A program made the position numbers and the translations under genes. Below the pieces are notes generated by a model. The model was not told where the DNA came from, did not search any database, and worked only from the letters and a program-made list of their open reading frames with translations. Shown here one piece after another: positions 11,822 through 27,583 of a DNA stretch of 64,000 bases. The first letter of the stretch is position 1. The number at the start of each line of letters is the position of its first letter. Origin of the DNA: a virus (Duplodnaviria; Caudoviricetes); IMG/VR virus record IMGVR_UViG_3300048502_000015, positions 32,001-96,000 of that record. One strand, given 5' to 3'.

Positions 11822-11920
11822 TTGGATTTCCCCTACCGCCTATCCCGGTCATAGGGTACTCAAGGTTGTGCTTACAGACTCCCTAAATCCGGGGTGCGGT
11901 CTGTAGATAGGCGTCACAAG

Positions 11921-12334
11921 TTAAACTACGTTTACCCGTCGAGAAGACTTGTACCAATGATAATGCTTAAAATGGCGTCGATTAGCTCGGCCATTTTTGC
12001 CGCAATAAACGCACATTTTGTACTCTCGTGTAACGAGATATGGTTTACGAGGAGGCCAAGGATAGGCCATAACCTCTTCTTCACCAGTCAAATAAGCGTG
12101 TCGCTTATGTCCTTCTCGGGCAGGGCAATACGAGATCTTCTTCTTTTCCTTCTTTCGAGACTTTCCGTTAGAAGGATGATCTAGAATCGGGGGCTGACGA
12201 TCATCTCGTGCTGCCCAGCTATCGGTTCGAACCGTTTTGATAGGGCCTCCTCGAAGGGCGGCTGCTTCTGCGGAACGAACTCTCTTGTTGTCGATTCGTT
12301 TACGAATGTGACGACTTGTAGATTTACGAGCCAT
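11921..12334 (-). CDS. basic hypothetical protein with CxxC
   Basis: 137 aa, Arg/Lys-rich; SD AAGGAG. Confidence 0.6.
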   Translation of the reverse strand: MARKSTSRHIRKRIDNKRVRSAEAAALRGGPIKTVRTDSWAARDDRQPPILDHPSNGKSRKKEKKKISYCPAREGHKRHAYLTGEEEVMAYPWPPRKPYLVTREYKMCVYCGKNGRANRRHFKHYHWYKSSRRVNVV

Positions 12335-12404
12335 GTTTGTTTTCTCCTTGTTAATAGGTTACTTTACAAACATATTCGTTCTCCTTGGTTAGTTGATTAT
12401 AAAG

Positions 12405-12476
12405 AGCGGGTAGAGGGAATTGAACCCTCATCTCAGGTGTGGAAGACCGGCATAATAGCCTTTATACTATACCCGC
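12405..12476 (-). tRNA. tRNA-Gly(TCC)
   Basis: GCGGGTA...CCGGT-CT-TCC-AC-ACCTG...TACCCGC-T. Confidence 0.9.
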
Positions 12477-12508
12477 AAGATACCTTTTATAGTCATGCTC
12501 AGGACTGA

Positions 12509-12582
12509 AGCCCATTTAGGGAATCGAACCCTATCTATTTCGCTTTACAAGAGCGATGCAGCACCATTTCTGCATAATGGGC
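12509..12582 (-). tRNA. tRNA-Thr(TGT)
   Basis: GCCCATT...TCGCT-CT-TGT-AA-AGCGA. Confidence 0.9.
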
Positions 12583-12589
12583 GATACTA

Positions 12590-12910
12590 TTACAGCTTCA
12601 TTATCCGGGGTTCTGTCCCTATTTCTAGGTGACGATCATCTGTCTCAGTTAGCCTATTTCTAGGCTTCCCTGGCGGATTCTTGACGAGTTGCCCGCTGCC
12701 CTCTACCTGCTATGTCCGTAGGTCTTTGCCCTTAGGATTCGCGTCTTGAGGTTGCATCCTCAGTTCCCATTCGAGGTTCAAGCGCCTTAGCTCCCTCCAA
12801 ATGTTACTTATTTACTGAGTTAGTTAAGCTCATAACCGAGTTTCCTCGGCCAGGATGCCCCGAAATTCCTCTACATATACCTTCTATGCAGCGACCGTCT
12901 TTAACTGTAA
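12590..12910 (-). ncRNA. rnpB: RNase P RNA (divergent, reduced S-domain)
   Basis: P1 TTACAGTT/AGCTGTAA; P2 GACGGTC/GATCGTC; CR-I GAGGAATTTCGGGGC pairs with CR-V ACAGAACCCCGGAT (P4); GATGCAA; AGACAGATGATC. Confidence 0.85.
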
Positions 12911-12912
12911 GT

Positions 12913-13122
12913 TTAGGAAATTCTTTGAACAACTACTACTTGAGTATCCCCTTTCATGAAGGTCCGGACTACCTTACTCTTGATATTGACCTGTCCAGGA
13001 TGGGCATGAACGATTGCACCAGGACCATACTTGGGGGCCGGTATAACCACACCCAAGTCTTCGTTGTTCCAATCTCTCGTGTATAGCTCTTCTACAAAAA
13101 GAGCCTTAGTATGTTTGCTCAT
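12913..13122 (-). CDS. small hypothetical protein, leaderless
   Basis: TGATATACT-6nt-ATG upstream. Confidence 0.6.
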   Translation of the reverse strand: MSKHTKALFVEELYTRDWNNEDLGVVIPAPKYGPGAIVHAHPGQVNIKSKVVRTFMKGDTQVVVVQRIS

Positions 13123-13140
13123 ATACATAGTATATCACAA

Positions 13141-13229
13141 ATCCTACAGCAAGATTCAAACTTGCGACACCATTTCGATTCCGGGTCCTACCCGGATGAT
13201 CTGTGCTCTGATCACTGAGCTATGTAGGA
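13141..13229 (-). ncRNA. tRNA-like RNA with extended, anticodon-less arm
   Basis: Normal acceptor, D and T arms; anticodon arm replaced by bulged helix ending TCCGGGT-AGG-ACCCGGA. Confidence 0.7.
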
Positions 13230-13367
13230 TGGCCTAGATAGAAACCCGCCGCTTATCTTCGGTCGGTTACGTAGCGACAAATCGCGGGAGATAAGCCCAA
13301 CGAAAACCTTGCCTCCTGGTACTCCCCGGTCATCATGAATCCGAGGGCCAGTTCCACCGTCTATCTA

Positions 13368-13428
13368 ATAGTGATAGGAGAATCGAACTCCAAATTAAGG
13401 GGTCTTCCTTAATCAACCTATATCACTA
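13368..13428 (-). ncRNA. D-armless mini tRNA-like RNA
   Basis: TAGTGATA/TATCACTA stem; ATTAAGG-6nt-CCTTAAT; GGAG-TTCGATT-CTCC. Confidence 0.6.
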
Positions 13429-13479
13429 GCTTTCTACTGAGTTAATTATCATGTGCTGATTCCTGGCGATGAGCCAGAG

Positions 13480-13551
13480 AGGAGTAGAGCGGTTTCGAGC
13501 CGCCTTCTGGGACATGGCAAGCCCCTGTAATAGCCAGTATACGACTACTCC
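13480..13551 (-). tRNA. tRNA-Gly(GCC), atypical T loop
   Basis: GGGGC-TT-GCC-AT-GTCCC; T loop CTCGAAA. Confidence 0.8.
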
Positions 13552-13632
13552 AAACACGCGGCAAACATATGATCATGGGAACTTCGGGTTTACCGCGTTA
13601 TACCCTAGCCGCACCATATGTTTTATTTTTAG

Positions 13633-13705
13633 TACCCCTGGACGGATTCAAACCGCCGACCTGATCGTTCGAAGCGACCCACTCTATTCACTGAGCTACA
13701 GAGGC
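13633..13705 (-). tRNA. tRNA-Arg(TCG)
   Basis: GGTCG-CT-TCG-AA-CGATC. Confidence 0.9.
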
Positions 13706-13844
13706 AAGAACTACAAATTATCAATCTTCTCTTCAATCCGTCTTTCTACATCGTGATCTCTGTCTTCTTCAACCGAATCTGCCTTTACCTCGACCGTCCA
13801 TCTATTCCATAATGTCTTCATCTACCTTTACCGTCTTGGTAAAG

Positions 13845-14165
13845 CTACTGAAGCACTAAATCTGTTTCATACCAACGATAATCGCTTAGTTGGTTATTGA
13901 AAAATTCTAGCCAATCAGAAGTACCTTTTGCTTCGTCCCATGTTACCAGAAAGTACGGAGGATCAGGTGACACTCTAGGAGTAATATCCTCTTTCTCTTC
14001 AATCAAGGAAGAAATCGTCCCAACAGGATCGTCGCCCTTGAGATAGGCGAGCGCTCCAATTAGATACCAATTGATTTCGTCGCTGGAATCCAATTCAAGG
14101 GCAATATCGTTTGCCACGCCGTTTGAAAGCTTTACTTTATCTCCAATTTTCATTTCATACCTCAT
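13845..14165 (-). CDS. hypothetical protein
   Basis: 106 aa ORF, MKIGDKVKL-type phage N-terminus. Confidence 0.55.
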   Translation of the reverse strand: MRYEMKIGDKVKLSNGVANDIALELDSSDEINWYLIGALAYLKGDDPVGTISSLIEEKEDITPRVSPDPPYFLVTWDEAKGTSDWLEFFNNQLSDYRWYETDLVLQ

Positions 14166-14337
14166 AGACTTGAGTTGTTTTACTTACGTAGTACTTTCCA
14201 TCGGCGGCAAGAATACCGACGAGGGTTCCTAAATGAATGGCAGCTATTTCTAGCTCCATCAGAGGCTTCCTCCGCTTCCATGTTCCTTGAACTGGATTCC
14301 ACTTCCTCATTGGACTTATTTCTATCTTGTAGTACAT
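14155..14337 (-). CDS. hypothetical protein
   Basis: Start moved to MYYK to avoid overlap with tRNA-Lys. Confidence 0.45.
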   Translation of the reverse strand: MYYKIEISPMRKWNPVQGTWKRRKPLMELEIAAIHLGTLVGILAADGKYYVSKTTQVYEV

Positions 14338-14339
14338 AG

Positions 14340-14415
14340 TACCCCGTATGCGGATCGAACGCATCTGATATCTCGATTAAGAGTCGAGTGCCACCACCAT
14401 TGGAGCCAACGAGGT
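14340..14415 (-). tRNA. tRNA-Lys(CTT)
   Basis: CTCGA-CT-CTT-AA-TCGAG. Confidence 0.9.
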
Positions 14416-14480
14416 AAGCGGGCTAATTATCGTCAAGCCCAATGACTATTCGGTTGTCTAATGGCCAACCGACAAACCCA

Positions 14481-14553
14481 TGCGACTGGAGGGATTCAAA
14501 CCCACGACCTTCGGTTTCGTAGACCGACGCTCTTTTCGCTGAGCTACAATCGC
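14481..14553 (-). tRNA. tRNA-Arg(ACG)
   Basis: TCGGT-CT-ACG-AA-ACCGA. Confidence 0.9.
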
Positions 14554-14567
14554 GTTTTGAGTGAGTA

Positions 14568-15236
14568 CTAGCCCTCACTCACGGCTTTGAGCATCTGGAT
14601 GCTATCTTCGATCTCAAAGGAATTGTCTTCCTTTGCAAACTCCCCTAGAGTGAAGTCCCTCAAGAGAGTATATTCGTAGCTGGATTCATCTCCCGCCAAG
14701 ATCAAGTCGTATACTACTGGACGCTGTTCCTTGAACTCGGTTAGCATTTTTTGAGCGAACTTTCGTTCGTCGTTTGTCATAGACGGCGCAATGCTTTTTG
14801 AAGCCAATTCTCCGACCCTTAGATGTAAGTCTCTGTGAGCTTTCAAACAAATTGGGATGGTACACTTGGACCGAGAAGCATATGCCTGATAGTTCTCAAG
14901 CATGAGCATCATCCAACGAGGTACATAGTGATGCCTCGTTATCCTACCTTCGCAAGTTAGTCCATGAATAGAGCAAATTCGGCAAACTGGTTCAATCCCT
15001 GCAAGCCGAATTCTTTCTAGGCGGCGCTCGATGACATGAGCCGGAACCACATTATCATCAGAAGCCAAACGAAGTCGATAAAGAACCTGACGCTGAGAGA
15101 GATCTTCGTCTAGAAGATCGTCCACATCAATGTCTTCGAGATCGGCAAGAAGCTCAAGCTGAGCAACAGTAGCCTTAGCTCGTTGATCGAACCAAATTTG
15201 GCCTGCTGGAGTGTTGAAAGGTCTAGCGCGGCTCAT
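14568..15236 (-). CDS. HNH-like Zn-binding protein
   Basis: CRIC...TRHHYVP...CLKAHRDLH. Confidence 0.6.
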   Translation of the reverse strand: MSRARPFNTPAGQIWFDQRAKATVAQLELLADLEDIDVDDLLDEDLSQRQVLYRLRLASDDNVVPAHVIERRLERIRLAGIEPVCRICSIHGLTCEGRITRHHYVPRWMMLMLENYQAYASRSKCTIPICLKAHRDLHLRVGELASKSIAPSMTNDERKFAQKMLTEFKEQRPVVYDLILAGDESSYEYTLLRDFTLGEFAKEDNSFEIEDSIQMLKAVSEG

Positions 15237-15314
15237 TTATTTTCTCCATCTATTATATCATAGAATTGAAGTCTACCCGATATTTTACCTTAAACTACAT
15301 ATCCCGTGATCAAG

Positions 15315-15349
15315 CGGTCAACGACGGGACTCGAACCCGCATCTTCGGA
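15315..15349 (-). pseudogene. isolated tRNA 3' fragment (T arm + acceptor 3' strand)
   Basis: GCGGG-TTCGAGT-CCCGT-CGTTGACC-G directly after tRNA-Glu; no 5' half. Confidence 0.65.
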
Positions 15350-15350
15350 G

Positions 15351-15424
15351 TACCACCACCGGGATTTGAACCCGAGTTTCCGCCGTGAGAGGGCGGCGTC
15401 CTAAACCAACTAGACGATGGTGGC
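15351..15424 (-). tRNA. tRNA-Glu(CTC)
   Basis: CCGCC-CT-CTC-AC-GGCGG. Confidence 0.92.
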
Positions 15425-15531
15425 TTGGCGGGGGTCCACCCTTTAACAGGTCTACCCCCATAATACAGCAAATATGATGCCTTATGGCCGCTTTAGGCAT
15501 TTAAAGCATCATATTTGCATCACTACAGGAA

Positions 15532-16947
15532 CTACAATGCCGCCCTCTCACGAATGTTGGCAAACGTCTGATGCCGAGTAATCTTTCCATTCTCGAAAAC
15601 AGTTTGTAGTACATCCGGGATTTGTACGTCATACATAGGAATAACGCCGTAACGTTCCGTAGCGTAGTTACCCGCCTGACTAAAGACAAGCTTCAAACGG
15701 CCTGCCTTACTTCTCTTCGAAGTATCGAGAGGAATCTTTGAGACATCATGCCAAATTCCATCTCGCTTCTGTGCGCTGCATTTGAACGCAAATCTTTGCG
15801 TATCACGGTTGACCTTCTGGAGCAAGCCCCCACCCATTCCGAAGACCATGTTTTCGGCTGAGTAGCCAGCAAGCTGGAGTCGTCCAAGGATCTTGTCGAT
15901 GCCGTTAGGATCGATCCCATCGCCCCACAAGACACGAATCTTGGGGTTAAGGACCTTGAATCCCTTAGAATTCGTAGTGGTTCCAAAACCCTTAGCCAGA
16001 GTATCTACAATCCATTCGGTTAGTAGATCTGGCGTAGGATGCTGAACGGTAATCGAATCAGGACGGACTACGAAAACCCCTTCGCGTTCAAGAATCTTAT
16101 CCTTGTACCAGGAGTTGAGATCAAGGCCAGCGACCGTATTGACAAAACGATAGATGTCATAGCTGTCGGCTACCACTGAAAGAATTCCAGTTGGGTATTT
16201 CTCAAGTAGGTCAGCCACGATCATCATTTCCTGCGCTTGTCCTCCTGCCGTCATAACCGAATGCTCAGTAGCAGGAACCGAAAATGCGAGACTTTGAGGG
16301 TCCGCATCGTAGGCTTGCATCGCCAACACCATTGCAGGGAGCGTATCTGTGCCCATGAAGTTGACTAGATGGGCTGCTCCACCGATGGCTGCTGTTTCGT
16401 CGCTTGAAGCTCCGCGATAACCAAAATCATGAAGCATGAACGGAAGACCGTCCCGGTTATCTGCTGTAGCGTCAAGATGGCCAGCAATCATTTCCTTTGT
16501 ATGGCGGCTGAGCGTAGCAACCGTTGATGGATACCAAACATGAGTCAAAAGGGACTCAACAAAGTTGGTAAGCCAAGCGCACTCTGGATCGGTATTTTCA
16601 ACCGTCATAAGCACGTTACCTGTCGGGATTACAGAACCCTCCGGAACCGCCTTGATGCGGATCGGAAGCTTGCCGTCAAGCTTGTTAACAATGTAATTCC
16701 ATCCATCAAAATTGAAGAGATTAGGATTACCAAAGTGAGTCTCGGCAATACCATAAGCCTCCCGGACATCATCCATCGTAACCGGCGTTTCAAGCTTCTC
16801 TAGGATCTTCTGCAATCCGAAAAACACCGTGTAAGGGAACTCTGCTCCCTGACGGCTTTCAAAATATGAGTAAACGCCCTCTGTCCCCTCGGGGTACATT
16901 TGATGGTGCGTCAACTTGTAGCTGTCTGTACTGAGAATTGTATTCAT
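15532..16947 (-). CDS. nadV: nicotinamide phosphoribosyltransferase (Nampt)
   Basis: TDSYK, LHDFGYRG, PATEHS, VVRPDS, NRDTQRFAFK motifs. Confidence 0.95.
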   Translation of the reverse strand: MNTILSTDSYKLTHHQMYPEGTEGVYSYFESRQGAEFPYTVFFGLQKILEKLETPVTMDDVREAYGIAETHFGNPNLFNFDGWNYIVNKLDGKLPIRIKAVPEGSVIPTGNVLMTVENTDPECAWLTNFVESLLTHVWYPSTVATLSRHTKEMIAGHLDATADNRDGLPFMLHDFGYRGASSDETAAIGGAAHLVNFMGTDTLPAMVLAMQAYDADPQSLAFSVPATEHSVMTAGGQAQEMMIVADLLEKYPTGILSVVADSYDIYRFVNTVAGLDLNSWYKDKILEREGVFVVRPDSITVQHPTPDLLTEWIVDTLAKGFGTTTNSKGFKVLNPKIRVLWGDGIDPNGIDKILGRLQLAGYSAENMVFGMGGGLLQKVNRDTQRFAFKCSAQKRDGIWHDVSKIPLDTSKRSKAGRLKLVFSQAGNYATERYGVIPMYDVQIPDVLQTVFENGKITRHQTFANIRERAAL

Positions 16948-16985
16948 AATCTTATCCTTGTATAGATTGTTGAATGTATATTGTA

Positions 16986-17966
16986 CTACACTTGCTGCTT
17001 ATGTGCTCTGCGGGTCACAATGACGTTGATCAAATCCTGGTGATTCGGAACAACGTCCAAATCCCAGTCAAGATCAAACCACTTAACCTCGGCAATGTCA
17101 TCTCCTGGCTTAGGAGTCCCGAACATATGCTTGGCCTCGAAGAGCAGAGTCTTGATAACTCTATCTGGCTCTTTGCGATAGCGCCAATCATCGATTAGGT
17201 AGCTCCCGACATAGACCGGATCAGTAATCTCGATCCCGGCTTCCTCTGAAACCTCTCTGCGGGCATCTGCCTCGTAGCTAGGACTCTTAGGATCGGAGAA
17301 CCCTCCGATCAGTCGGAACTTCTTCTCATTGGCTTTGCGGCCTAGAAGGATCTTGCTTCCGTCCTCGTTGAGGATGGCAACATCGACTGTTGCAAAGCAT
17401 TGAGGAAACTGGCTGAATGCAGCCCAGACAACGCCTGCGCGGAAATCCGGAGTCCCTCGAACGCTTGTGCGAGAAACCTCTTTGCGGATTTCGCTTCCCG
17501 AAACAAAGACCTGAGATTCAAGCTCTTCGCTGGGATGCTTTCCCGAATAATGAGAGATGAATGAGTCGCGTCCTCCATAGAGAAGAACGGTCTGATTCGG
17601 GGTAATCACATCATCGATTTGAGTATCGAGATTGCGGCTCCAAACTTCATCGTCGGGCTGGTCCTTGATGTAAAGGACGTTCACATGAGGGAACTTGGCA
17701 AGGATCATCTGCTTGCGTCCCTCGAAGTCCAAAGGATTCTCTCGGGTGACCATCAAAGGCGACAAGCCAAGAAAGATGATTACTTTTCCATGGCGGTCAC
17801 AAACGGTCTGAATAAGTTCCATATGAGCATCATGTAGCTCGGGAACCTGAAAACGGCCTACGATTACACCGACATCCTGGCTGTTAGCTCTGGCGCGATC
17901 TCTAGATGCACCTTTGCTAAGCTTCAAGTTTCTTTCAAACTCTGTGTATTCTGCTGGATATGTCAT
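16986..17966 (-). CDS. natV: bifunctional NMN adenylyltransferase / Nudix hydrolase
   Basis: VGRFQVPELHDAH (HxxH), SGSEIR, Nudix box GG...ARREVSEEAG. Confidence 0.9.
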   Translation of the reverse strand: MTYPAEYTEFERNLKLSKGASRDRARANSQDVGVIVGRFQVPELHDAHMELIQTVCDRHGKVIIFLGLSPLMVTRENPLDFEGRKQMILAKFPHVNVLYIKDQPDDEVWSRNLDTQIDDVITPNQTVLLYGGRDSFISHYSGKHPSEELESQVFVSGSEIRKEVSRTSVRGTPDFRAGVVWAAFSQFPQCFATVDVAILNEDGSKILLGRKANEKKFRLIGGFSDPKSPSYEADARREVSEEAGIEITDPVYVGSYLIDDWRYRKEPDRVIKTLLFEAKHMFGTPKPGDDIAEVKWFDLDWDLDVVPNHQDLINVIVTRRAHKQQV

Positions 17967-18013
17967 TTTCTTCCTTTCAATTCCATCAATAACGAATTGT
18001 TTGGTTTATAAAG

Positions 18014-18089
18014 TACCAGTAGGGGGAGTCGAACCCAACCTCACTCTTGTTTAAAAGACAAGTGCCCAGTCCACACGGGCGCTACTGGC
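18014..18089 (-). tRNA. tRNA-Lys(TTT)
   Basis: CTTGT-CT-TTT-AA-ACAAG. Confidence 0.88.
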
Positions 18090-18092
18090 AAG

Positions 18093-18176
18093 CTAATGAA
18101 CTCCTGCTGCTACAAGAACGGCTACAACGTAGCCTATCAAGATAAACAACAAAAGCGCAATCAATTTATAGTTCAT
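18093..18176 (-). CDS. 27-aa single-TM peptide, leaderless
   Basis: MNYKLIALLLFILIGYVVAVLVAAGVH*; TGATATAAT-6nt-ATG. Confidence 0.6.
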   Translation of the reverse strand: MNYKLIALLLFILIGYVVAVLVAAGVH

Positions 18177-18200
18177 AACTACATTATATCACAGTTTAAG

Positions 18201-18272
18201 TACGCCCACGAGGATTTGAACCCCGATGTGCTGGGAATAAGCCAGATGTTCTAACCGTTGAACTATGGGCGC
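18201..18272 (-). tRNA. tRNA-Ile(TAT)
   Basis: CTGG-CT-TAT-TC-CCAG; T at position 37. Confidence 0.75.
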
Positions 18273-18277
18273 AAGAG

Positions 18278-18349
18278 GGTGACTGATGGGAAATGACCCC
18301 ATACCAACCGGCTTCACAGGCCAGGACTCTACATTAAGCTACAGCCACC
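18278..18349 (-). tRNA. tRNA-His(GTG)
   Basis: G-1:C73; CTGGC-CT-GTG-AA-GCCGG; atypical T loop GTCATTT. Confidence 0.85.
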
Positions 18350-18496
18350 ATGATTACTACAAACCGCTGCCGAGTCGCCACTGTCCGTTCCTAACTCCTG
18401 CTCTCGGCCAGTATCCCGTTCATCGGATACTCTCATCCACGAGACTTAAATCGTCTACCTATTAAAATGCCTTTACCGTTTATAATTAGTAGAAAG

Positions 18497-18583
18497 TAGC
18501 GGTAGAGAGGATCGAACTCTCAATTCCCTTACGGGACAACGATTTTTAAGACCGTCCTGTATACCTAATTCCAGCATACCGCC
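18497..18583 (-). tRNA. tRNA-Leu(TAA), long variable arm
   Basis: ACGGT-CT-TAA-AA-ATCGT. Confidence 0.9.
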
Positions 18584-18587
18584 AAAT

Positions 18588-19112: not shown

Positions 19113-19302
19113 TCGTCAAGCAGGGACCAGAACTATATTGATCGTAGCTAACCGATCTAGCCTTTACAACATAACGTTTACCGTCGATGTCAAAGGAAAT
19201 CCAAGTTGGCTCGTAGCCACAATTATCAGAAACGCCGACAATCGTTGCGGTCTTTCCTTCGAGTCCTACAAACTCGTTCTTCTTGACTGTTTCAAATTCC
19301 AT
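19096..19302 (-). CDS. small hypothetical protein, leaderless
   Basis: TGATATACT-6nt-ATG. Confidence 0.6.
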   Translation of the reverse strand: MEFETVKKNEFVGLEGKTATIVGVSDNCGYEPTWISFDIDGKRYVVKARSVSYDQYSSGPCLTIKREI

Positions 19303-19326
19303 AACTACAGTATATCATACTTCAGG

Positions 19327-20165: not shown

Positions 20166-20252
20166 GAACAGGGGAAGGAATCGAACCTTCGTAGATCTGG
20201 ATATGAGCCAAATTGGAGAAAGCCCTTTAGGGCAACCAACACTCTCCCTGCA
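20166..20252 (-). tRNA. tRNA-Met(CAT) with hairpin insertion in D loop
   Basis: TTTGG-CT-CAT-AT-CCAGA; extra GCCCT-AA-AGGGC in D loop; T1xT72, C73. Confidence 0.65.
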
Positions 20253-20264: not shown

Positions 20265-20340
20265 GAGGAACAACCTTACCCGTTAGGTGAAATCTAATGC
20301 CAGAGACATTAGACTATCGGACTCGAACCGATGTATCCTC
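20265..20340 (-). ncRNA. circularly permuted tRNA-like RNA (YrlA-type T-AS-D order)
   Basis: ATCGG-TTCGAGT-CCGAT, then AGTCTAA-linker-TTAGATT, then ACCT-AACGGGTA-AGGT, closed by GAGGA/TCCTC. Confidence 0.7.
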
Positions 20341-20430: not shown

Positions 20431-20533
20431 AAAATATATACTGGACCTAGCCCTCGCGCGCTTTGCAGGGTGTTTCCGGATTTGCCATTCCTTCGTTGGA
20501 ATGGACAGGTAAGTAGTATATGTACCACCTTAG

Positions 20534-20607
20534 TACCACCAGAGGGATTTGAACCCTCGATATCTTGCTTGAAAGGCAAGCGAATTAGACCGCTATTCTA
20601 TGATGGC
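20534..20607 (-). tRNA. tRNA-Glu(TTC)
   Basis: CTTGC-CT-TTC-AA-GCAAG. Confidence 0.9.
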
Positions 20608-20790
20608 GTGTGTACGCTCTCTGTGACAATTTGCGCATACAAGATCACATTTGGCTATTTCGGCCAAAACAGACCTTAGAGAACGTCCGTTTGTAATCAA
20701 TTGAGAAATATTATTATCCTTTTGTGAGGGATCTAAATGATGAAAATCGGTGACATAGTAGCGAAATTGCCTGATTCCTCCGCTGGCCAA
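20593..20790 (-). pseudogene. N-terminally truncated HNH endonuclease
   Basis: DFHHLDP...EIAKCDLVCANCHRERT present; upstream CxxC absent; stop codon lies inside tRNA-Glu. Confidence 0.65.
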
Positions 20791-20942
20791 TTCGGAAGTG
20801 GTCCTCGATTTGAATCGTCATAAAAGCTATCCTGAAGGTCCTCTTCAAGTTCAAGAACTCGATCAAGGGCTTCAAGCAGAAGACCAACTATTTCACCGAA
20901 CGAGAACCGTTCTTCGTAATATTCTCTAGTGTGTCGTTCCAT
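20733..20942 (-). CDS. small acidic hypothetical protein, leaderless
   Basis: TGCTATACT-6nt-ATG (MERHTREYY...). Confidence 0.55.
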   Translation of the reverse strand: MERHTREYYEERFSFGEIVGLLLEALDRVLELEEDLQDSFYDDSNRGPLPNWPAEESGNFATMSPIFII

Positions 20943-21049
20943 AACTACAGTATAGCAGAACTTCAAAATTCGTGCAACACCTTAACCACCTGAACGTTGG
21001 CCCAATTCGGCAAAGAACTTAGGGCCAGTAGTCTAGGGCGTTACACAAG

Positions 21050-21123
21050 TGCGAATGGGAGGACTCGAACCTCCGACCACTTCCATATCAGGGAAGCACT
21101 CTAGTCCACTGAGTTACACTCGC
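21050..21123 (-). tRNA. tRNA-Ile(GAT)
   Basis: CTTCC-CT-GAT-AT-GGAAG. Confidence 0.92.
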
Positions 21124-21125
21124 AA

Positions 21126-21191
21126 TCTCCGTAAGAGGACCTGAGCCTCTACCTCTGGCTGCCGCCAGGATGCTTCTTACACCATACGGAA
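21126..21191 (-). ncRNA. compact tRNA-like RNA with tetraloop in place of anticodon loop
   Basis: TTCCGTA/TACGGAG; GTGT-AAGAA-GCAT; CTGGC-GGCA-GCCAG; AGAGG-CTCAGGT-CCTCT. Confidence 0.72.
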
Positions 21192-21192
21192 G

Positions 21193-21264
21193 TGGTCCCA
21201 GAGGGAATCGAACCCTCTACGCCCTCCTCTTCAGGGAGGCGCTCTACCATTGAGCTACAGGACC
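21193..21264 (-). tRNA. tRNA-Phe(GAA)
   Basis: CCTCC-CT-GAA-GA-GGAGG. Confidence 0.93.
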
Positions 21265-21630
21265 ATATACCTGCCGATCTCTCAGAAGGTATCTACAACA
21301 GGCGGACATGTTGAGCCGCCGAAAAGCTTGCAATCCACTTTTGTAGAATGGATTCGTTACTTTTCGGTGCCGGTTTCATCGTCCAACCGCTTGGTTAAAA
21401 CTACTATTTTCTTTGGCTTTTGCATACTATTTATACTACCTATTATCGGGTTATTACACTTGTACAAAAGTACAAGATTTAGTGGCTTATTCTATCCTTA
21501 CACCACTATCCAGTGATAACGTCGGTGTCACGACCTGATAGATGGCAATTAGATAGATCGGAGTGTGCGGTATGACCAGAGGAGTCCACACACCCCTGAT
21601 ACCGAGTGGATTTTACACAAGAACGATCTA

Positions 21631-21714
21631 CGGAATACCAGAGAATCGAACTCTGCCGGGACATAGCCCCTTATCTCGTTTCCAGCGAGACTCCTAACCA
21701 ATCGGTTATATTCC
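21631..21714 (-). tRNA. tRNA-Ser(GGA)
   Basis: TCTCG-CT-GGA-AA-CGAGA; long variable arm; overlaps pth2 stop. Confidence 0.8.
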
Positions 21715-22122
21715 AGAGTCCTCCGACAAGTGCCACCAGCGGCGTTCCTTGGTTTTTGGCGGCAAATCCTTGTACGTCCTGAAGTCTCCAAAAGTAGCCT
21801 GGACATGAAGATCGTCCTTATCCACAATCTCGACTCCGAGAGCAGTATAAGAAAACGGCTGAATCTCAGTTCGGCCTTCATCGATGATGATTGCCGTTTT
21901 GAATCCGCGTTCCTTAATGTACCGCTCAATGACCAGGAGTTGATCCGCATCCTCAGCCAGCATAACCAGCTTTGTGTAGTGCTTTCCGTAATTCCAGTTC
22001 TCGATCATCTTCCGATCAGAAATTTGGAATGCTTCGACGGCAGCATGAGCGACCTGCGCAGCAGATTTGCCAACCGACATACCTAAACCTCGGTTCAGGA
22101 ACAAATACATTGCAGGTCGCAC
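21706..22122 (-). CDS. pth2: peptidyl-tRNA hydrolase, Pth2 type
   Basis: MSVGKSAAQVAHAA, TKLV, IDEGRTEIQPFSYTALG. Confidence 0.9.
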   Translation of the reverse strand: MRPAMYLFLNRGLGMSVGKSAAQVAHAAVEAFQISDRKMIENWNYGKHYTKLVMLAEDADQLLVIERYIKERGFKTAIIIDEGRTEIQPFSYTALGVEIVDKDDLHVQATFGDFRTYKDLPPKTKERRWWHLSEDSGI

Positions 22123-22130
22123 ATTCTCTC

Positions 22131-22316
22131 CTAGCTGTCAATTTTTGTATAAACACCAAACACATCGAATAGCTTATCTACCGCCCATGCAGCAAGTGCC
22201 CATACTGTCCAAACTTTCCAAGCCGCGCCTAAGACAAGGGCCGGAGCAAGTAGAGAGTACAAAGCAAATGCTAGAAATAGTACTGCGAGAAACAAAATCA
22301 GTTTCTTGAGAATCAT
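22131..22316 (-). CDS. small two-TM membrane protein
   Basis: Two hydrophobic segments. Confidence 0.6.
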   Translation of the reverse strand: MILKKLILFLAVLFLAFALYSLLAPALVLGAAWKVWTVWALAAWAVDKLFDVFGVYTKIDS

Positions 22317-22384
22317 ATGAATCTTTCTGATGGTGCTACATTTATTCGTCAAATTAGGGAACGTACAGGTTTCTGTACGTCCAG

Positions 22385-22470
22385 CGGAAGGGAGGAGGGT
22401 CGAACTCCTAAGGCTTGCGCTCGTCTGTTTTCAAGACAGATGCCGTCGCCAACTGTCGGCTAGCCCTTCC
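22385..22470 (-). tRNA. tRNA-Ser(TGA)
   Basis: TCTGT-CT-TGA-AA-ACAGA. Confidence 0.88.
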
Positions 22471-22512
22471 AAACGGATCGTAACCCCATTTCAGGTTCGC
22501 TACGATCCTAAG

Positions 22513-22588
22513 AGATCAGAGTGAGATTCGAACTCACGATATTAAATGCTTTGCAGGCATTCCCGTTCAACCACTCCGGCATCTGATC
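22513..22588 (-). tRNA. tRNA-Cys(GCA)
   Basis: AATGC-CT-GCA-AA-GCATT; T73. Confidence 0.9.
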
Positions 22589-22862
22589 TTGGTCCCAGCC
22601 GACGCCTTCCGACGCCGACCGAGATGTGAAATCCGGATTGCCTACCGAAAACTTTGGACCAATATTGGTTTATAGTCAATATTACCGCAGTACCCATTGT
22701 TAGCCGCTAAGCACAACTGCCATCCGCTGCTAACGGACGCCACTAACTGTCTCAGGAACTTTCCCGTTGATGCGTTAGCTTGACGTTGCCAATGTTGCCT
22801 TATCCCCTATTGGTGCAGGGATTATTCAGCCATTTCTAGGTGCAACCGTCGCTACACCATAG

Positions 22863-22933
22863 CTCCTGAACAGGGACTCGAACCCCGATTAAATGGTTAA
22901 CAGCCATTCGTCCTGCCATTGAACGATTCAGGA
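22863..22933 (-). tRNA. tRNA-Asn(GTT)
   Basis: AATGG-CT-GTT-AA-CCATT. Confidence 0.93.
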
Positions 22934-22970
22934 ATGTTACTACAAGATCCTATGCGAGAACCATAGGATA

Positions 22971-23056
22971 CGGAATGCCTGGGATTTGAACCCAGAACGG
23001 GTATTAGACCGCACTTCCTTAGCAGGGAAGCTCCTCGTGCCATTCGGACACATTCC
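22971..23056 (-). tRNA. tRNA-Ser(GCT)
   Basis: CTTCC-CT-GCT-AA-GGAAG. Confidence 0.88.
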
Positions 23057-23117
23057 AAAGTAAATACTACTTCGGTTACGGGAATCCTCGCGGCCCACAC
23101 GATTTTGAAGGTAGTAA

Positions 23118-23189
23118 TGTCCCTGATGGGAGTCGAACCCATTCTCGCGGTTTAGGAAACCGCTGCCTTGTCCGTTTGGCTTCAAGGAC
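23118..23189 (-). tRNA. tRNA-Arg(CCT)
   Basis: GCGGT-TT-CCT-AA-ACCGC. Confidence 0.9.
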
Positions 23190-23283
23190 CGAGAGAAAGA
23201 GTCCCGTAGGACCCTTTCTGATTTGCTAGCACAATTAAAGTTCCCGCACCCGCCCGAGAGCTACAAACTCACTTGGGAACTAT

Positions 23284-23353
23284 TGATAAGTCCAGAATCG
23301 AACTGGAATCTCTGCCGTTTAGCAGCGAGGTTTCCAAAACCTCTTCATTATCT
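23284..23353 (-). ncRNA. tRNA-like RNA with long D stem and 4-nt 'anticodon' loop
   Basis: GAGGTTT-TGG-AAACCTC; CTGCT-AAAC-GGCAG; TCCAG-TTCGATT-CTGGA; GATAA/TTATC. Confidence 0.65.
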
Positions 23354-23384
23354 CCCCAGTACCCATGCATTGGCGTTGGAGTTA

Positions 23385-23783
23385 TGGATCATGTCGGAAT
23401 CGAACCGACGTGTTCGGTACGCCTATTAGGTTACTTCTATCAGCTTTGGGGCAGGCTTTAACCCGCCTCCACCAAAGAGTTTATACGATACTCATAAACG
23501 AAAAGCCCCGCTACCAATCTAGCTTTTATTCAGGTCTTTCTAGACGTGCTAGACAACGCTAGAAGACCGACTCTTGTTCTGGTTCCAAGTCAGAGTTGAC
23601 TCATGCAATGGCTAAACCAATGCTAGGAGTGAATCTCCCGCTGTTACCTGATCGCACTTGGCGAATAGGCTTGCCGGAATGTTCACGAGTGAATCGTTGT
23701 CATGTATTGACTGTTTGGTTTATGGTGACCAACCGCTGAATAACACTAACCGCTTCTTACCGAGTCGAATGCCTGTATGACCC
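23385..23783 (-). ncRNA. ssrA: tmRNA; predicted tag (A)DNDSLVNIPASLFAKCDQVTAGDSLLALV*
   Basis: GGGTCAT/ATGATCC-A with G3.U70; ATTCGAC; T arm GTCGG-TTCGATT-CCGAC; tag ORF 23701-23612. Confidence 0.9.
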
Positions 23784-23877
23784 GAGATTAGATGGACTAG
23801 GATTTCTGGGTTCAGTTCCCCACGTTACCTAGACTGGTGCGGTTGTTCCCGCTGTCTCTATTTGGACTACCCATCTA

Positions 23878-23949
23878 TATCCAGTACTGGATTCGAACCA
23901 GTGATCTCTTGCGTGTCGAGCAAGCGTAATCCCACTTTACCAACCGGAT
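23878..23949 (-). tRNA. tRNA-Val(GAC)
   Basis: CTTGC-TC-GAC-AC-GCAAG. Confidence 0.88.
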
Positions 23950-24004
23950 GAATTTCTCTGTCGCGGCGTTACCCACAGAGCCTCATCGCATCTGGATGAG
24001 AAAG

Positions 24005-24077
24005 TACTCGATATCCGTTCTGCCCGGATTACCTTTTGCGTGTAAAACAAACGCTCTCCTAATTGAGCTAATCGAGC
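24005..24077 (-). tRNA. tRNA-Val(TAC), atypical T loop
   Basis: TTTGT-TT-TAC-AC-GCAAA; T loop GGCAGAA. Confidence 0.8.
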
Positions 24078-24457
24078 AAGAATCCAAAGAGAGTCTGCGT
24101 TCACATCAAATAACTTTCAGAGCTACTGTCTTCCTGCCGGTCAAGTAGGTGGTTATTTGGCTGACTGTCACTCGGGACCTAGATCTTTGAGTCCTGTTTC
24201 TTTGGGTAAGAGTCCCCTTAAGGTATTACGTTGCCCCGCCTCTACCGGGGTCGCAAGGGGATAAGATTACGAGCGGTCACCAGCCATTGGAGGAATCGAA
24301 CCTCTCTACTCTAGGTGTACCATTATAAACAAGAATCGAACTTGACACCGTTAGGTTAAACTGTAGTCTAGATGCCTACACGGGTTCCCCGTTTACCGTA
24401 GTTGCTTGCGGTCTTAGCGCTAAGGAACCAAATTTGGTACATGGACCTACAGTTAAG

Positions 24458-24529
24458 CGACCCCATGGGGACTCGAACCCCAACTTCAACTTCGACAGAG
24501 TAGTGTGATGACCTTTTCACTATAGGGCC
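24458..24529 (-). tRNA. tRNA-Asp(GTC), intact
   Basis: CTACT-CT-GTC-GA-AGTTG; G73. Confidence 0.85.
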
Positions 24530-24581
24530 ATTAAATGAACCCCTACCGTCGCATAATGTATGAAACGATAAGGATGCAATA

Positions 24582-25253
24582 ATGAAATTACAACAACGAA
24601 CAGAAGCCCGTCATTTACGACAAGATTATGGTTGGTCTATTAAACAAATAGCCCAAAACCTCAATGTATCTCCCAGTTCAGTTAGTACCTGGACTAGAGA
24701 CATTGTTCTTACACCCGAACAACAGAAAAATTTGGATCTAAAAAATCCAGCATTGAATCCCACCGGAACAAACACAAATACCAAATTCTTTCGAGATAAA
24801 CGAAAGATATCACAAAACATCGGAGCCTCCCAAATCGGGAACCCCGAGTTTGCTGCTGGTTGTTGTCTGTATTGGGGAGAAGGATCTAAAAATCGTAATT
24901 CTGTTAGTATTACTAATACAGATACGAATCTTTTAGTCTTCTTTTTGCAATTTATACGAAATCACTTCGTCATTGACGATAATGAGATTCACGTAACCGT
25001 TTCCTATCATGTCGATAATGGATTCGATAAAGATACCGTCGAAGGATTTTGGTTACAAGCATTAAATCTACCCAAATCCTGTTTAAGAAAACCCATTCTA
25101 GATAGTCGATCTCGTTCGGCCACTAAAGCCCCAAATAAAAAGTATCCCTTTGGGTGTTGTCGAATTGAAATAGGTCGCACAGATATTATCCAAGCCATTT
25201 ATGGTGGTATTCAAGCACTTGGGGGATTTACAAAAACCGAATGGTTAGATTGA
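24582..25253 (+). CDS. HTH + LAGLIDADG-like homing endonuclease
   Basis: N-terminal HTH (SIKQIAQNLNVSPSSVSTW); LYWGEGSK...ITNTD; AT-rich; antisense to tRNA operon. Confidence 0.8.
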   Translation: MKLQQRTEARHLRQDYGWSIKQIAQNLNVSPSSVSTWTRDIVLTPEQQKNLDLKNPALNPTGTNTNTKFFRDKRKISQNIGASQIGNPEFAAGCCLYWGEGSKNRNSVSITNTDTNLLVFFLQFIRNHFVIDDNEIHVTVSYHVDNGFDKDTVEGFWLQALNLPKSCLRKPILDSRSRSATKAPNKKYPFGCCRIEIGRTDIIQAIYGGIQALGGFTKTEWLD

Positions 25254-25288
25254 CAGGGTAGCGCTTTAAGCCACTAAGCTACAACTCC
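25251..25288 (-). pseudogene. 5' half of tRNA-Asp(GTC) truncated after position 37
   Basis: GGAGTTGTAGCTTAGTGGCTTAAAGCGCTACCCTGTCA. Confidence 0.85.
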
Positions 25289-25359
25289 AGAAGCCACGAT
25301 GCCGACTGCATACGGCGGTTTGCGCAAACTCCCTCATGGCTTGAGGAGCGACCGTTAAG

Positions 25360-25430
25360 CAGGCCATATCCGAATCGAACAGATGTTAAGGGGTTTGGAA
25401 TCCCTTGTGCTACCACTACACCAATGGCCC
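25360..25430 (-). tRNA. tRNA-Trp(CCA)
   Basis: AGGGA-TT-CCA-AA-CCCCT. Confidence 0.88.
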
Positions 25431-25438
25431 TTATTTTA

Positions 25439-25624
25439 CTACCGAATTACAAAACGTCCCTGTCCAATGTGGCGGCGAGAACACTCCCTCTTCAAACCTC
25501 TAAGAAGTTTGTTCTTTTCGTCACTCATAGAGCCAAATCCGGATGAATAAAGCGCTGAAGTTAGAGAAAGAATTTCCTCGTCCGAGAAGACCGACCAACG
25601 AATCTTATTTGGAGTTTTGTTCAT
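25439..25624 (-). CDS. small hypothetical protein, leaderless
   Basis: TGATATACT-6nt-ATG. Confidence 0.6.
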   Translation of the reverse strand: MNKTPNKIRWSVFSDEEILSLTSALYSSGFGSMSDEKNKLLRGLKRECSRRHIGQGRFVIR

Positions 25625-25729
25625 AACTATAGTATATCACATAAATAGGCTCGCAAGGGGAATCAAAACCTATCGGAGCGCTCCCCAGCGCGGTTTAGAT
25701 AAGGATTTATATGATCGTTTGTCCGCCTA

Positions 25730-25800
25730 AGCCACAAGATGGTGCTGATCCATCGTCCCTGGGGTACGAATCCAGAATTCTTCCGTTGAACTATTGTGGC
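25730..25800 (-). tRNA. tRNA-Thr(CGT), atypical T loop
   Basis: CTGGA-TT-CGT-AC-CCCAG; T loop ATCAGCA. Confidence 0.78.
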
Positions 25801-25949
25801 GCTACTAATGAGATAGGAGTAAGCTACTCCATAGGTTCGGTTAATCCGTTGATCATGCCAATCTAATCAGCATAAGAGGCATCGATACTCTTCGTTAGCC
25901 AATGCTGTTAGCAACCCTTAGGATGGTCCCTTTCGGGAAAACTATCTCA

Positions 25950-26021
25950 AGCCGCCACCGAGAATCGAACTCGGGATGCATCCGTACCAAGGATGTGTGA
26001 TACCACTTACACCATGGCGGC
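25950..26021 (-). tRNA. tRNA-Thr(GGT)
   Basis: CATCC-TT-GGT-AC-GGATG. Confidence 0.92.
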
Positions 26022-26126
26022 GAATTGGGAATCCAATAAATTGGCAGTTAGCATCAAATGCTACTGGTTTATATTCCCAAGATCTCTACAAGAAACTGTT
26101 GCCCAGCTTCTTGCAAGTTTGAATTA

Positions 26127-26201
26127 TCGGGACGGCTGGATTCGAACCAGCGCTCACTCACTTCCAAGGCGAGGATGTTGACCAGGCTACACTACGCCCC
26201 G
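26127..26201 (-). tRNA. tRNA-Pro(TGG)
   Basis: CTCGC-CT-TGG-AA-GTGAG; C1-G72. Confidence 0.9.
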
Positions 26202-26247
26202 TTGGAGCAGAGAAGACCTTTGACAGCCTACTCTGCAAGTTACTTCA

Positions 26248-26322
26248 TGGACCTATTCGGGTTCGAACCGAAAACCTTCTCCGTGCAAGGGAGTTGCTCT
26301 ACCAAATTGGAGCTACAGGCCC
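26248..26322 (-). tRNA. tRNA-Ala(TGC)
   Basis: G3.U70; CTCC-CT-TGC-AC-GGAG. Confidence 0.92.
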
Positions 26323-26445
26323 AGACACCTGGGAAGATTGGTATCCCAGGCTTACTATCCAATGTATATTTAACGATTGGCCAATCACCGACCGACAGAG
26401 CAGGGCTAGACCCCTCTGTGATGCATGGCCTCTTCTAGCGAGGAG

Positions 26446-26519
26446 TGCCTCTCCTGGGACTCGAACCCAGACTGATACGCTTCTAAGGCGTAGTCCTCTA
26501 CCAATTGGGATAGAGAGGC
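26446..26519 (-). tRNA. tRNA-Leu(TAG), short variable loop
   Basis: TACGC-CT-TAG-AA-GCGTA; no long variable arm (a form known from actinobacterial tRNA-Leu). Confidence 0.88.
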
Positions 26520-26523
26520 TAGT

Positions 26524-26562
26524 GCCCTCTCCTACCAGAAAGGAGGAGGGTTAGGAGAGGGC
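26524..26562 (-). ncRNA. 11-bp hairpin displaying anti-Shine-Dalgarno CCTCCTTTCT in its loop
   Basis: GCCCTCTCCTA-ACCCTCCTCCTTTCTGG-TAGGAGAGGGC. Confidence 0.6.
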
Positions 26563-26711
26563 TGGGGGGACCAAGGGAATAAGCCCTTTACGCGGTCCCC
26601 GGTGCTACATTCTAGATACTGCAAATCACTCTAATAATCACATATTACAACTTGGAATCCGATCTAGGCCGGAACTTTTATGTTTCATGGATCCATAACC
26701 GCCGAAGCGGA

Positions 26712-26792
26712 TACCCACAAGAGGATTCGAACCTCTACGCCTTTCGGCACAACGTTCTTAGCGTTGCATGTCTACCATTCCATCATGTGGGC
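26712..26792 (-). tRNA. tRNA-Leu(AAG)
   Basis: CAACG-CT-AAG-AA-CGTTG; long variable arm. Confidence 0.88.
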
Positions 26793-26861
26793 GTACCCAT
26801 CGTGGCTCATGGGGCATCCGGACTACGATGGCTATCCGGTTTAGGCCAACCCTTACTAACT

Positions 26862-26932
26862 CTCGGGACGCCGGATTCGAACCGACTTCTCAGGGAACAA
26901 GATCCCTGCGCATTTCCTGTTGCTAATCCCTA
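26862..26932 (-). tRNA. atypical tRNA with 8-nt anticodon loop (undetermined/pseudo)
   Basis: CAGGG-ATCTTGTT-CCCTG; canonical T arm; A2xG71 mismatch. Confidence 0.55.
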
Positions 26933-27112
26933 CCTCAATCCAACCGTCGCCAGAAAGAGGATACTTGGTCCGTTGGGGTACATGGCCACGATCCCGTCAT
27001 CGTGGACGGGGCACCCATGAGATATGCCAACGGAAAGTGATCCAAACCATTTTCAGAAGAATTCAGGCTATACCTGTTCAATCTACGCGGATTGTCTTCT
27101 AGGTTCAGCTTG

Positions 27113-27252
27113 CAGTCGTGGGAATCGCACCCAATGGCGGTATTACCCGTCCACTCTTCGTGGGTCCATAAGATAGCGGCCCTCTTGTACTCCCGGAGGC
27201 TTCACTTCTACGTATTCCGGTTTCCTCATGCATATCTTACTTATCTTCGACT
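27113..27252 (-). ncRNA. ~140-nt RNA with tRNA-like acceptor/T-arm ends and large multibranch interior
   Basis: TAGTCG...TGGG-TGCGATT-CCCA-CGACTG; internal AAGATA/TATCTT, CCGGA/TCCGG, CCAC/GTGG helices. Confidence 0.5.
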
Positions 27253-27255
27253 AAG

Positions 27256-27342
27256 TGCTGGCCGAGGGATTCGAACCCCCATGGATTGTTTTGCCCGCTC
27301 GGGTTACAGCCGAGTGCAGCTAACCGTATCTGCGTGACCAGC
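27256..27342 (-). tRNA. tRNA-Tyr(GTA)
   Basis: CTCGG-CT-GTA-AC-CCGAG. Confidence 0.85.
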
Positions 27343-27583
27343 ATAAATATAGATAACCGGGCGCTAAACCCAGTGGTTCTAATCACCCGCTTTATAGACC
27401 CTATATGTATTGTCTACGAATAGGCGGGGAGTCATCGCCATCCAGGGGGTTATTGGCCCACCTAAGTCTAAATCAAACTTCTGAAGTATCTTAGATCCTG
27501 GTCAGGCTGCGGATTGATTTGTGCCCCGGAGGGTTATTCCTTTTCGGAACCGCGTGGTTTATCTATGTTTTACTGCTTTCAAC

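Follow-up and report, generated by a model that had tools for sequence, protein, structure and literature searches.

The DNA under study is a stretch of 64,000 nucleotides (nt), hereafter the window, which covers positions 32,001 to 96,000 of the IMG/VR virus record IMGVR_UViG_3300048502_000015. The whole record is the 160,424-bp genome of an uncultured phage, complete according to CheckV. Between positions 11751 and 27688 of the window lies an island of about 16 kb in which all the transfer RNA (tRNA) genes, together with a transfer-messenger RNA (tmRNA) gene, are carried by the minus strand as judged by ARAGORN and Rfam. ARAGORN reports 34 tRNAs (35 by another count) and the tmRNA in this interval, Rfam alone adds two more tRNAs (24005-24077 and 18014-18089), which gives 37 tRNA genes on the higher count, and all the tRNAs of the genome are confined to the island. 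None of them has an encoded CCA end, and a T (U in the RNA) stands at +1 of nearly all. Unless stated otherwise, positions below are those of the window and features are on the minus strand. A preliminary description of this sequence had singled out 13 spacers between these tRNAs (below, the 13 elements) as RNAs closed by pairing of their two ends, and had proposed that tRNA processing would release a dozen or more uncharacterised small RNAs (sRNAs) from one tRNA operon. Our results show that the inter-tRNA spacers are, as a class, structured at the RNA level, although only about half of the 13 elements are conserved RNAs.

Syntenic arrays were found in four other IMG/VR genomes, one close (G2, about 75-85% nucleotide identity) and three distant (G1, G3 and G4). 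Searches for closer relatives with a 222-amino-acid (aa) protein of the array and with a 24-nt block of the tRNA-Val to tmRNA element returned G2 only, and megablast with 10 kb of the array gave no nucleotide relative among isolated phages. The DnaE-type polymerase is 28-33% identical to homologues of Rhodococcus and Mycobacterium phages. A metagenome scan gave six contigs, mostly short, which were useful for the ribonuclease P (RNase P) RNA described below and barely so for the 13 elements.

We measured folding on whole spacers, the edges of which are fixed by the tRNA ends and not by inverted repeats. On the transcribed strand, the 16 whole spacers of the window phage (45-195 nt) had a mean z-score of −2.21, against −0.52 for 48 length-matched random control segments (Mann-Whitney U test, p 7e-6). 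The preliminary description had named folding against shuffled controls as its own refuting test, and the whole spacers indeed fold better than their shuffles and than the control segments. The whole spacers of the four relatives gave sense-strand means of −1.57, −1.27, −2.47 and −1.39. Moreover, over the five genomes (n=71) the sense strand folded better than the antisense strand (−1.76 vs −1.07, Wilcoxon p 4e-5), and it did so in each of the five, an advantage that points to RNA structure and not to DNA symmetry. The best-folding whole spacer, which lies between tRNA-Pro and tRNA-Thr(ggt) at 26022-26126 (z −5.1, two long hairpins), was absent from the preliminary list.

A spacer was scored as closed when its first 15 nt formed a helix of 7 bp or more with its last 15 nt, the control being the 5' edge of one spacer joined to the 3' edge of another. 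A terminal helix closes 23 of the 92 whole spacers of the five genomes (25%) against 6.2% of the mismatched edges (p 7.5e-9), and still 19 of 68 when G2 is left out. The closing helix typically opens +1 or +2 past the discriminator and stops 2-8 nt short of the next tRNA. One may object that closed elements which open at +1, like abutting tRNAs, and which have tRNA-like sizes are simply the debris of tRNA birth and death and of homing-endonuclease co-conversion, their stems being remnants of acceptor, T and D arms under no selection. This view has real evidence behind it. The tRNA content does vary among the relatives, and T- or D-arm fragments are found in the spacers at 26872-26894, 25251-25288, 24289-24304, 23293-23305, 20315-20332, 20172-20191, 15324-15341, 13378-13391 and 13203-13224. 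ARAGORN at relaxed settings also finds tRNA-like relics in the spacers. One relic or mimic, at 21126-21191, is a 66-nt cloverleaf in which a 4-nt loop replaces the anticodon loop, and ARAGORN calls its G2 orthologue a tRNA-Ile(aat). Another fragment, 25251-25288, is an exact 38-nt copy of the 5' half of tRNA-Asp as found in G2; it adjoins an opposite-strand helix-turn-helix (HTH) gene, and the intact tRNA-Asp is at 24457-24529. Against such a passive origin, the closure enrichment remained significant when spacers with tRNA-like hits were dropped (16 of 85), and the closing helices are often 8-10 bp long instead of 7. The tRNA covariance model (RF00005) has no match among the 13 elements at E values up to 10, nor does ARAGORN call a tRNA among them at 85% thresholds, at which neighbouring relics do match. 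Compensatory changes maintain helices, as detailed below, and two orthologous spacers can fold well in spite of having nothing in common in sequence: at the Pro to Thr(ggt) position, the G2 spacer is unrelated to that of the window and also strongly folded. We therefore consider a purely passive legacy rather unlikely. As a separate observation, an 82-nt spacer of G1 (L047, 13191-13272 of the reverse-complement array) is tRNA-shaped with an anticodon loop that reads UUA, and it is possible that this is an ochre-suppressor-type tRNA with an odd T loop.

The terminal pairing of the 13 elements themselves calls for more caution. As had been described, complementary ends are present at all 13 (6-9 bp, or 12 bp for 20973-21046 once extended), and the minimum free energy (MFE) fold of the minus strand uses the claimed pairing in 11 of them; the exceptions are 26936-27094, where it is partial, and 20436-20522, where the whole-spacer MFE prefers another fold. 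What did not stand is the weight given to such pairing, which occurs at chance density. The window has 800 perfect 7-bp inverted repeats with a spacing of 70-230 nt (12.5 per kb), and five shuffles have 598-760; the non-tRNA DNA of the array shows no enrichment (8.8 per kb vs 12.5 per kb for the window). Forty control segments picked outside the array by the same inverted-repeat rule already had a mean z of −1.48, so that the way in which the elements were selected explains most of their apparent stability; their mean minus-strand z of −2.47 is only about one standard deviation better than that of these controls. End-pairing alone is thus unsuitable for calling RNA genes, and half of the closed stems picked by eye are indistinguishable from chance.

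It could be argued from this density, which equals that of the shuffles, that the elements are chance inverted repeats mixed with DNA-level signals such as promoters, terminators and nuclease or recombinase sites, and that their TAGAT-type ends mark a mobile or recombination element. In line with this idea, the array is 3-4 times richer in the words TAGATNG and CNATCTA, such repeats bound several inserts specific to the window phage, and terminator-like sites number 29 vs 14.6 expected. TAG-containing words, however, are expected to be rarer in the coding rest of the window, no second copy of any of the 13 elements exists in the 160-kb genome, and the closing helices of the relatives share nothing beyond the initial T. 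The transcribed strand also folds better and uses G-U pairs. We regard this explanation as very improbable. A family of miniature inverted-repeat transposable elements or dispersed repeats was rejected for the TAGAT-type ends, given the absence of further genome copies and of any motif common to the closing helices of the relatives; the direct-repeat families found were T-arms and promoters. Integron attC-like elements were set aside for want of conserved core sites, Y RNA or YrlA-type RNAs in view of the lack of a TROVE (Ro60) match in the genome, and a retron in that no reverse transcriptase was seen among the array open reading frames (ORFs) scanned.

The island is not the single operon that had been assumed. 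It contains at least eight promoters on the minus strand, embedded small ORFs and opposite-strand homing-endonuclease genes; the promoters of extended −10 type number eight. An 18-mer, TGATATACTGTAGTTATG, which combines an extended −10 box with a leaderless ATG, occurs four times in the island vs 0.05 expected (18174-18191, 19300-19317, 20940-20957 and 25622-25639), and the copies would drive ORFs of 27, 68, 69 and 61 aa. A transcript from TGATATACTGTAGTTATG would start at the ATG, and these small genes are therefore predicted to be leaderless; the four ORFs have no clear homology to one another. The shortest, a 27-codon ORF at 18093-18176 between tRNA-Ile(tat) and a tRNA-Lys(ttt)-like gene, encodes the very hydrophobic peptide MNYKLIALLLFILIGYVVAVLVAAGVH, and the spacer that holds it is strongly folded too (z −3.2). 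Further copies of the 18-mer lie at genome positions 112342 and 113512, on the plus strand. Array spacers in general thus carry small leaderless ORFs, unlike the 13 elements, in which, as had been stated, there is no credible ORF, only short TTG or GTG frames without a promoter. Two opposite-strand nuclease or HTH (homing-endonuclease) genes adjoin duplicated tRNA halves. Taken together, the promoters, leaderless ORFs, homing endonucleases and relics indicate that the region is a mosaic and not a single tRNA operon.

Homologues were detected with nhmmer for 7 of the 13 elements, in G2 only. On comparative grounds, the strongest of them are 23789-23877, 20973-21046 and 27345-27570. The first is an 89-nt cloverleaf-shaped RNA that fills the spacer between tRNA-Val(gac) and the tmRNA, beginning +1 past the discriminator and finishing 5 nt ahead of the tmRNA (z −3.5, closure p 0.003). 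In spite of its cloverleaf topology it has neither a T loop nor an anticodon loop. Its closing helix is TAGATGG/CCATCTA in the window and a shorter GAUGG/CCAUC in G2. The same spacer is closed by other helices in G3 (AGCAACAC/GUGUUGCU, also given as AGCAACAC/GTGTTGCT) and in G4 (UUUGAUAGG/CCUAUCAAA, also given as TTTGATAGG/CCTATCAAA). The stem of the central hairpin differs in sequence, and covaries, from one lineage to the next, and its loop stays A/C-rich; MAFFT could not align the distant versions.

The second element, which extends over 20970-21048, is a long bipartite hairpin placed 0-2 nt past tRNA-Ile(gat). The claim that 20973-21046 favours the minus strand was borne out (z −3.6 in sense vs −1.7 in antisense). 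Its 12-bp base helix includes three G-U pairs, and G2 preserves this helix by changing G-U to A-U and C-G to U-G; there, the apical hairpin is swapped for a different one. The base is A/U- and G-U-rich and is followed by AUUUU in the window and AAUUU in G2; a consensus scan made no terminator call. A promoter (20949-20957) lies within 15 nt downstream.

The third, 27345-27570, begins a few nucleotides past a strong promoter and is consequently the 5' leader of the tRNA-Tyr transcript and not an inter-tRNA piece. This sigma-70-type promoter (27613-27584; TTGACA-18-TATACT, TG-extended, score 11/12 with TG) directly follows tRNA-Arg(tct), and its −35 and −10 boxes are conserved in G2, G3 and G1. 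The closing helix of the leader, ATAGATAA(A)CC / GGTTATCTAT, keeps its pairing in G2 by an A-U to G-C double change, and a GCGCCCGG block together with a covarying hairpin is common to four genomes.

Comparative support is moderate for two further elements, although the hairpins inside the first rank with the three elements above as the segments best backed by compensatory changes. The tRNA-Leu(taa) to tRNA-His spacer element 18357-18484 (nhmmer E 2e-10) retains in G2 its inner hairpins at about 18410-18431 and 18369-18408, and its closing stem in part, with 3 compensatory, 7 one-sided and 10 broken pair changes. Element 11837-11913 separates the stop codon of a 137-aa ORF from the last tRNA, tRNA-Met; the 3' strand of its helix, then a GCGGUAGG-GAAA-CCA leader, recur in G2 and G1, with 1 compensatory and 2 one-sided vs 4 broken pairs, and CGCC/GGCG becomes CGCU/AGCG in G1. 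G2 keeps only the 3' half of 24157-24287, which there comes immediately after tRNA-Asp, and the closing stem shows no conservation; the T-arm relic 24289-24304 is next to the element.

Element 22589-22662 (z −4.8) turned out to combine two features. Rfam was scanned for known families, as had been advised, and a manA-type RNA overlapping this element was found at 22623-22856, in the tRNA-Asn to tRNA-Cys spacer. The element is thus the 3' tail of that RNA plus a 12-bp hairpin (22596-22621) between the manA-type RNA and tRNA-Cys. This hairpin forms the structured core of the element, and in G2 one of its G-C pairs is replaced, by compensatory change, with A-U; the closing stem that had been claimed uses manA residues and is not conserved. 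The idea that the 13 elements are uncharacterised RNAs is accordingly supported for several that are conserved with compensatory changes, and it fails for this one, part of a known family, and for the promoter-proximal tRNA-Tyr leader.

The manA RNA motif (RF01745) was described by Weinberg et al. 2010 (PMC2864571) and occurs in cyanophages (PMC2864571, PMC9964418). The window copy matches RF01745 over its full length with 40.2 bits (E 3e-9), without reaching the gathering score of 55.2, and its orthologues do so with 51.4 bits in G2 and 40.9 bits in G3 (E across copies 3e-9 to 4e-7). P1 is paired with differing, covarying sequences in the window phage, G2, G3 and G4, and the blocks GGCUGAAUAA, GCUUAGC and GGUAGGCAAUCC are shared. 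This RNA therefore resembles manA in being full-length and phage-borne with a covarying P1. It departs from typical manA in that its score is sub-threshold and in that it lies between tRNAs and not in the 5' untranslated region of a sugar or nucleotide metabolism gene, the next ORF (21706-22122) coming only after two tRNAs. Its host phage, moreover, is distantly actinophage-like by DnaE and not a T4-like cyanophage.

At 12586-12910, directly upstream of tRNA-Thr(tgt), lies a reduced RNase P RNA homologue of about 325 nt. It matches RF00010 with 39.2 bits (E 1e-10, model positions 1-367), below the 100-bit gathering threshold, and its place between tRNA-Gly(gcc) and tRNA-Thr(tgt) is the same in 10 related contigs. 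When 7 distinct sequences are compared, P4 is fully paired (56 of 56 cells), 5 of its 8 positions covary and its bulged U never changes; P1-P3 also persist, with covarying pairs, and one sequence block reads GCAACCTCAAG-NN-GCGAA-N-CCTAAGG. Like type A RNase P RNA, it keeps P1-P4, the conserved-region blocks CR-I and CR-V, the P4 bulged U and an AGAUGA-type J18/2 block. Unlike the bacterial type A RNA, it is phage-encoded, short and sub-threshold, and it resides in a genome without RnpA; the RnpA of the host might serve it. We thus regard 12586-12910 as a covariation-supported RNase P RNA homologue with putative catalysis. No isolated-phage match to this region was obtained by blastn, and no report of a phage-encoded RNase P RNA was found in the literature searched, which is not proof of absence. 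In one metagenome relative (L052:1097-1873, minus strand) the RNase P RNA gene is split by an insert of about 450 nt that reads like an HNH endonuclease ORF, with Cys-x-x-Cys and His-containing motifs in the DNA, and this insert may be an intron or homing element inside a ribozyme gene.

The tmRNA, called by ARAGORN at 23385-23783, has a tag ending in AGDSLLALV*. Its orthologues in G2, G3 and G4 score above the Rfam RF00023 threshold; the window copy has no RF00023 match even at E 10, and the G2 copy, 85% identical to it, reaches 55 bits.

The six remaining elements have no homologue in any relative by nhmmer. Element 13235-13367 (z −0.5) is specific to the window phage, lies between the tRNA relics 13140-13230 and about 13367-13452, and falls within DNA missing at that position in the relatives. 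Element 20436-20522 is weak, and its orthologous spacer in G2 folds poorly and has an unrelated sequence. Three others are insertions relative to G2. The first, 21554-21630, is a 77-nt insert directly after tRNA-Ser(gga), which it overlaps by 1 nt, with the ends TAGATCG/CGATCTA; G2 has the conserved block 21394-21486 just 11 nt past tRNA-Ser(gga), without the insert. The second, 24359-24454, has a z of −0.6 in the transcribed orientation and a much lower one, −4.6, on the plus strand; it lies beside the homing-endonuclease and tRNA-Asp duplication, the nearby opposite-strand HTH/homing-endonuclease gene being at 24582-25253. The third, 25809-25949, takes up the spacer between tRNA-Thr(ggt) and tRNA-Thr(cgt), its ends pairing as TGAGATAG/CTATCTCA (closure p 0.04); that spacer is only 14 nt in G2 and is of unrelated sequence in G1, G3 and G4. 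Finally, 26936-27094 is lineage-specific (z −2.9) and abuts the tRNA-like relic 26862-26932.

These comparisons bear directly on the proposal that the 13 elements, or at least most of them, are discrete, stable and functional sRNAs excised from one operon, as T4 RNAC and RNAD on a larger scale. In its favour are the end pairing seen in every one of the 13, the surplus of folding and closure in the class as a whole, and the exact abutment of several elements on tRNA ends. However, the number of a dozen or more cannot be sustained: 6 of the 13 have no homologue in the four syntenic relatives, and on the transcribed strand two of these, 13235-13367 and 24359-24454, do not surpass their shuffles in folding. 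In addition, 7-bp end pairing is at chance density, one element is the tail of the manA-type RNA, another is a promoter-proximal leader, and the island is not one operon. We hold this proposal to be very improbable.

Altogether, we favour, at a rough probability of 0.55, a reading in which the island is a mosaic of at least eight minus-strand units where tRNAs alternate with self-folding spacers under RNA-level selection. Within this same reading, and at the same odds, a minority of the folded segments would be conserved RNA genes or cis elements, namely the RNase P RNA, the tmRNA, the manA-type RNA with its hairpin, the Val/tmRNA spacer RNA, the hairpin after tRNA-Ile, the tRNA-Tyr leader, the Leu/His hairpins and the helix before tRNA-Met. 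The rest would be filler. The six unsupported elements would belong to this rapidly replaced filler, derived in part from decayed tRNAs and homing-endonuclease traffic, with end-pairing at or near chance. Selection would favour self-folding spacers, in many of which a single helix holds the two ends together. Each spacer module would then fold independently, so that the neighbouring tRNAs would fold correctly, insulated from misfolding. A host 3' endonuclease would cut past the discriminator of the CCA-less tRNAs and RNase P, with an RNA subunit of the phage's own, at the next tRNA, the cleavage sites being exposed on short linkers. An excised module, both ends of which are buried in a helix, would be resistant to exonucleases.

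Several points weigh against this interpretation. The spacer z-scores were obtained with only 30 shuffles per spacer, and the window phage and G2 are not independent in the closure test. The comparative depth is thin, with one close and three distant relatives, and the covariation amounts to few events beside many broken pairs; the inner MFE fold of the tRNA-Tyr leader is mostly not conserved (26 broken pairs), and the broken pairs of the Leu/His element count likewise. Inheritance from decayed tRNAs, and not selection, could account for part of the excess structure, and some hairpins may be terminators or DNA-level signals. Finally, we infer the cleavage, release and stability of the spacers from sequence.

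A bolder version of the mosaic reading can be formulated, which we consider unlikely on present evidence, although less so than the discrete-sRNA proposal. The island would be an autonomous RNA-maturation unit equipped with its own RNase P ribozyme, and the closed spacers would be manufactured stable sRNAs. The Val/tmRNA spacer RNA and the tRNA-Tyr leader of about 230 nt would then be new families acting in trans or in cis, for instance to mature the tmRNA or to set the output of the array.

A PTH2 peptidyl-tRNA hydrolase gene (21706-22122, Pfam E 7e-21) lies between tRNA-Ser genes and is kept in G2 and two metagenome contigs; NAMPT and NUDIX genes are also within the array. Outside the window, a PolyA_pol/CCA-adding-type nucleotidyltransferase domain is encoded at G000:C1:21993-22379 (minus strand) in a 1135-aa open frame, which fits the CCA-less tRNAs. 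RnpA (PF00825), a metallo-beta-lactamase RNase Z, RNase III and Ro60 (TROVE) were not found in the genome.

What does this organization mean for phage tRNA clusters more generally? These clusters are usually annotated as tRNAs and empty gaps. The gaps of this island show measurable RNA-level constraint, and they adjoin a phage RNase P RNA, a tmRNA, a manA-type RNA and genes for a peptidyl-tRNA hydrolase and a CCA-adding enzyme. Of most interest are the closure signal of the class and two conserved RNAs, that of the Val-tmRNA spacer and the Tyr leader. If closed spacers do become stable RNAs, the non-coding repertoire of large phages would be much bigger than catalogued, and a design rule for engineered multi-RNA arrays would follow, in which both ends of a module are locked in a helix between two tRNA cleavage sites.

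Known systems offer several points of comparison. The tRNA region of T5 encodes tRNA-like stable RNAs. In T4, RNAC and RNAD (species 1 and 2 RNAs) are small non-tRNA RNAs encoded among the phage tRNA genes and co-transcribed with them, the function of which is still unknown (PMC9697503). Compared with these T4 and T5 RNAs, the spacers of the island are far more numerous, longer and mostly not conserved, and they are known here from sequence alone. In the tRNA-microRNA units of murine gammaherpesvirus 68, in MALAT1-mascRNA and in the tRNA-small nucleolar RNA genes of plants, stem-loops adjacent to a tRNA or tRNA-like structure are excised by means of tRNA processing and tRNase Z. The island resembles them in that a helix directly follows the discriminator, so that cleavage at the tRNA 3' end would make the 5' end of the neighbour. 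It differs from these eukaryotic and herpesviral units in that such cleavage is predicted and in that the downstream end would come from RNase P at the next tRNA. The closed spacers also recall the leader-trailer processing stalks of rRNA operons, in which the two ends of the excised segment pair together. The rRNA stalks, however, reach about 20 bp or more and serve as substrates of RNase III, whereas the island helices measure 7-12 bp and belong to a phage without an RNase III gene.

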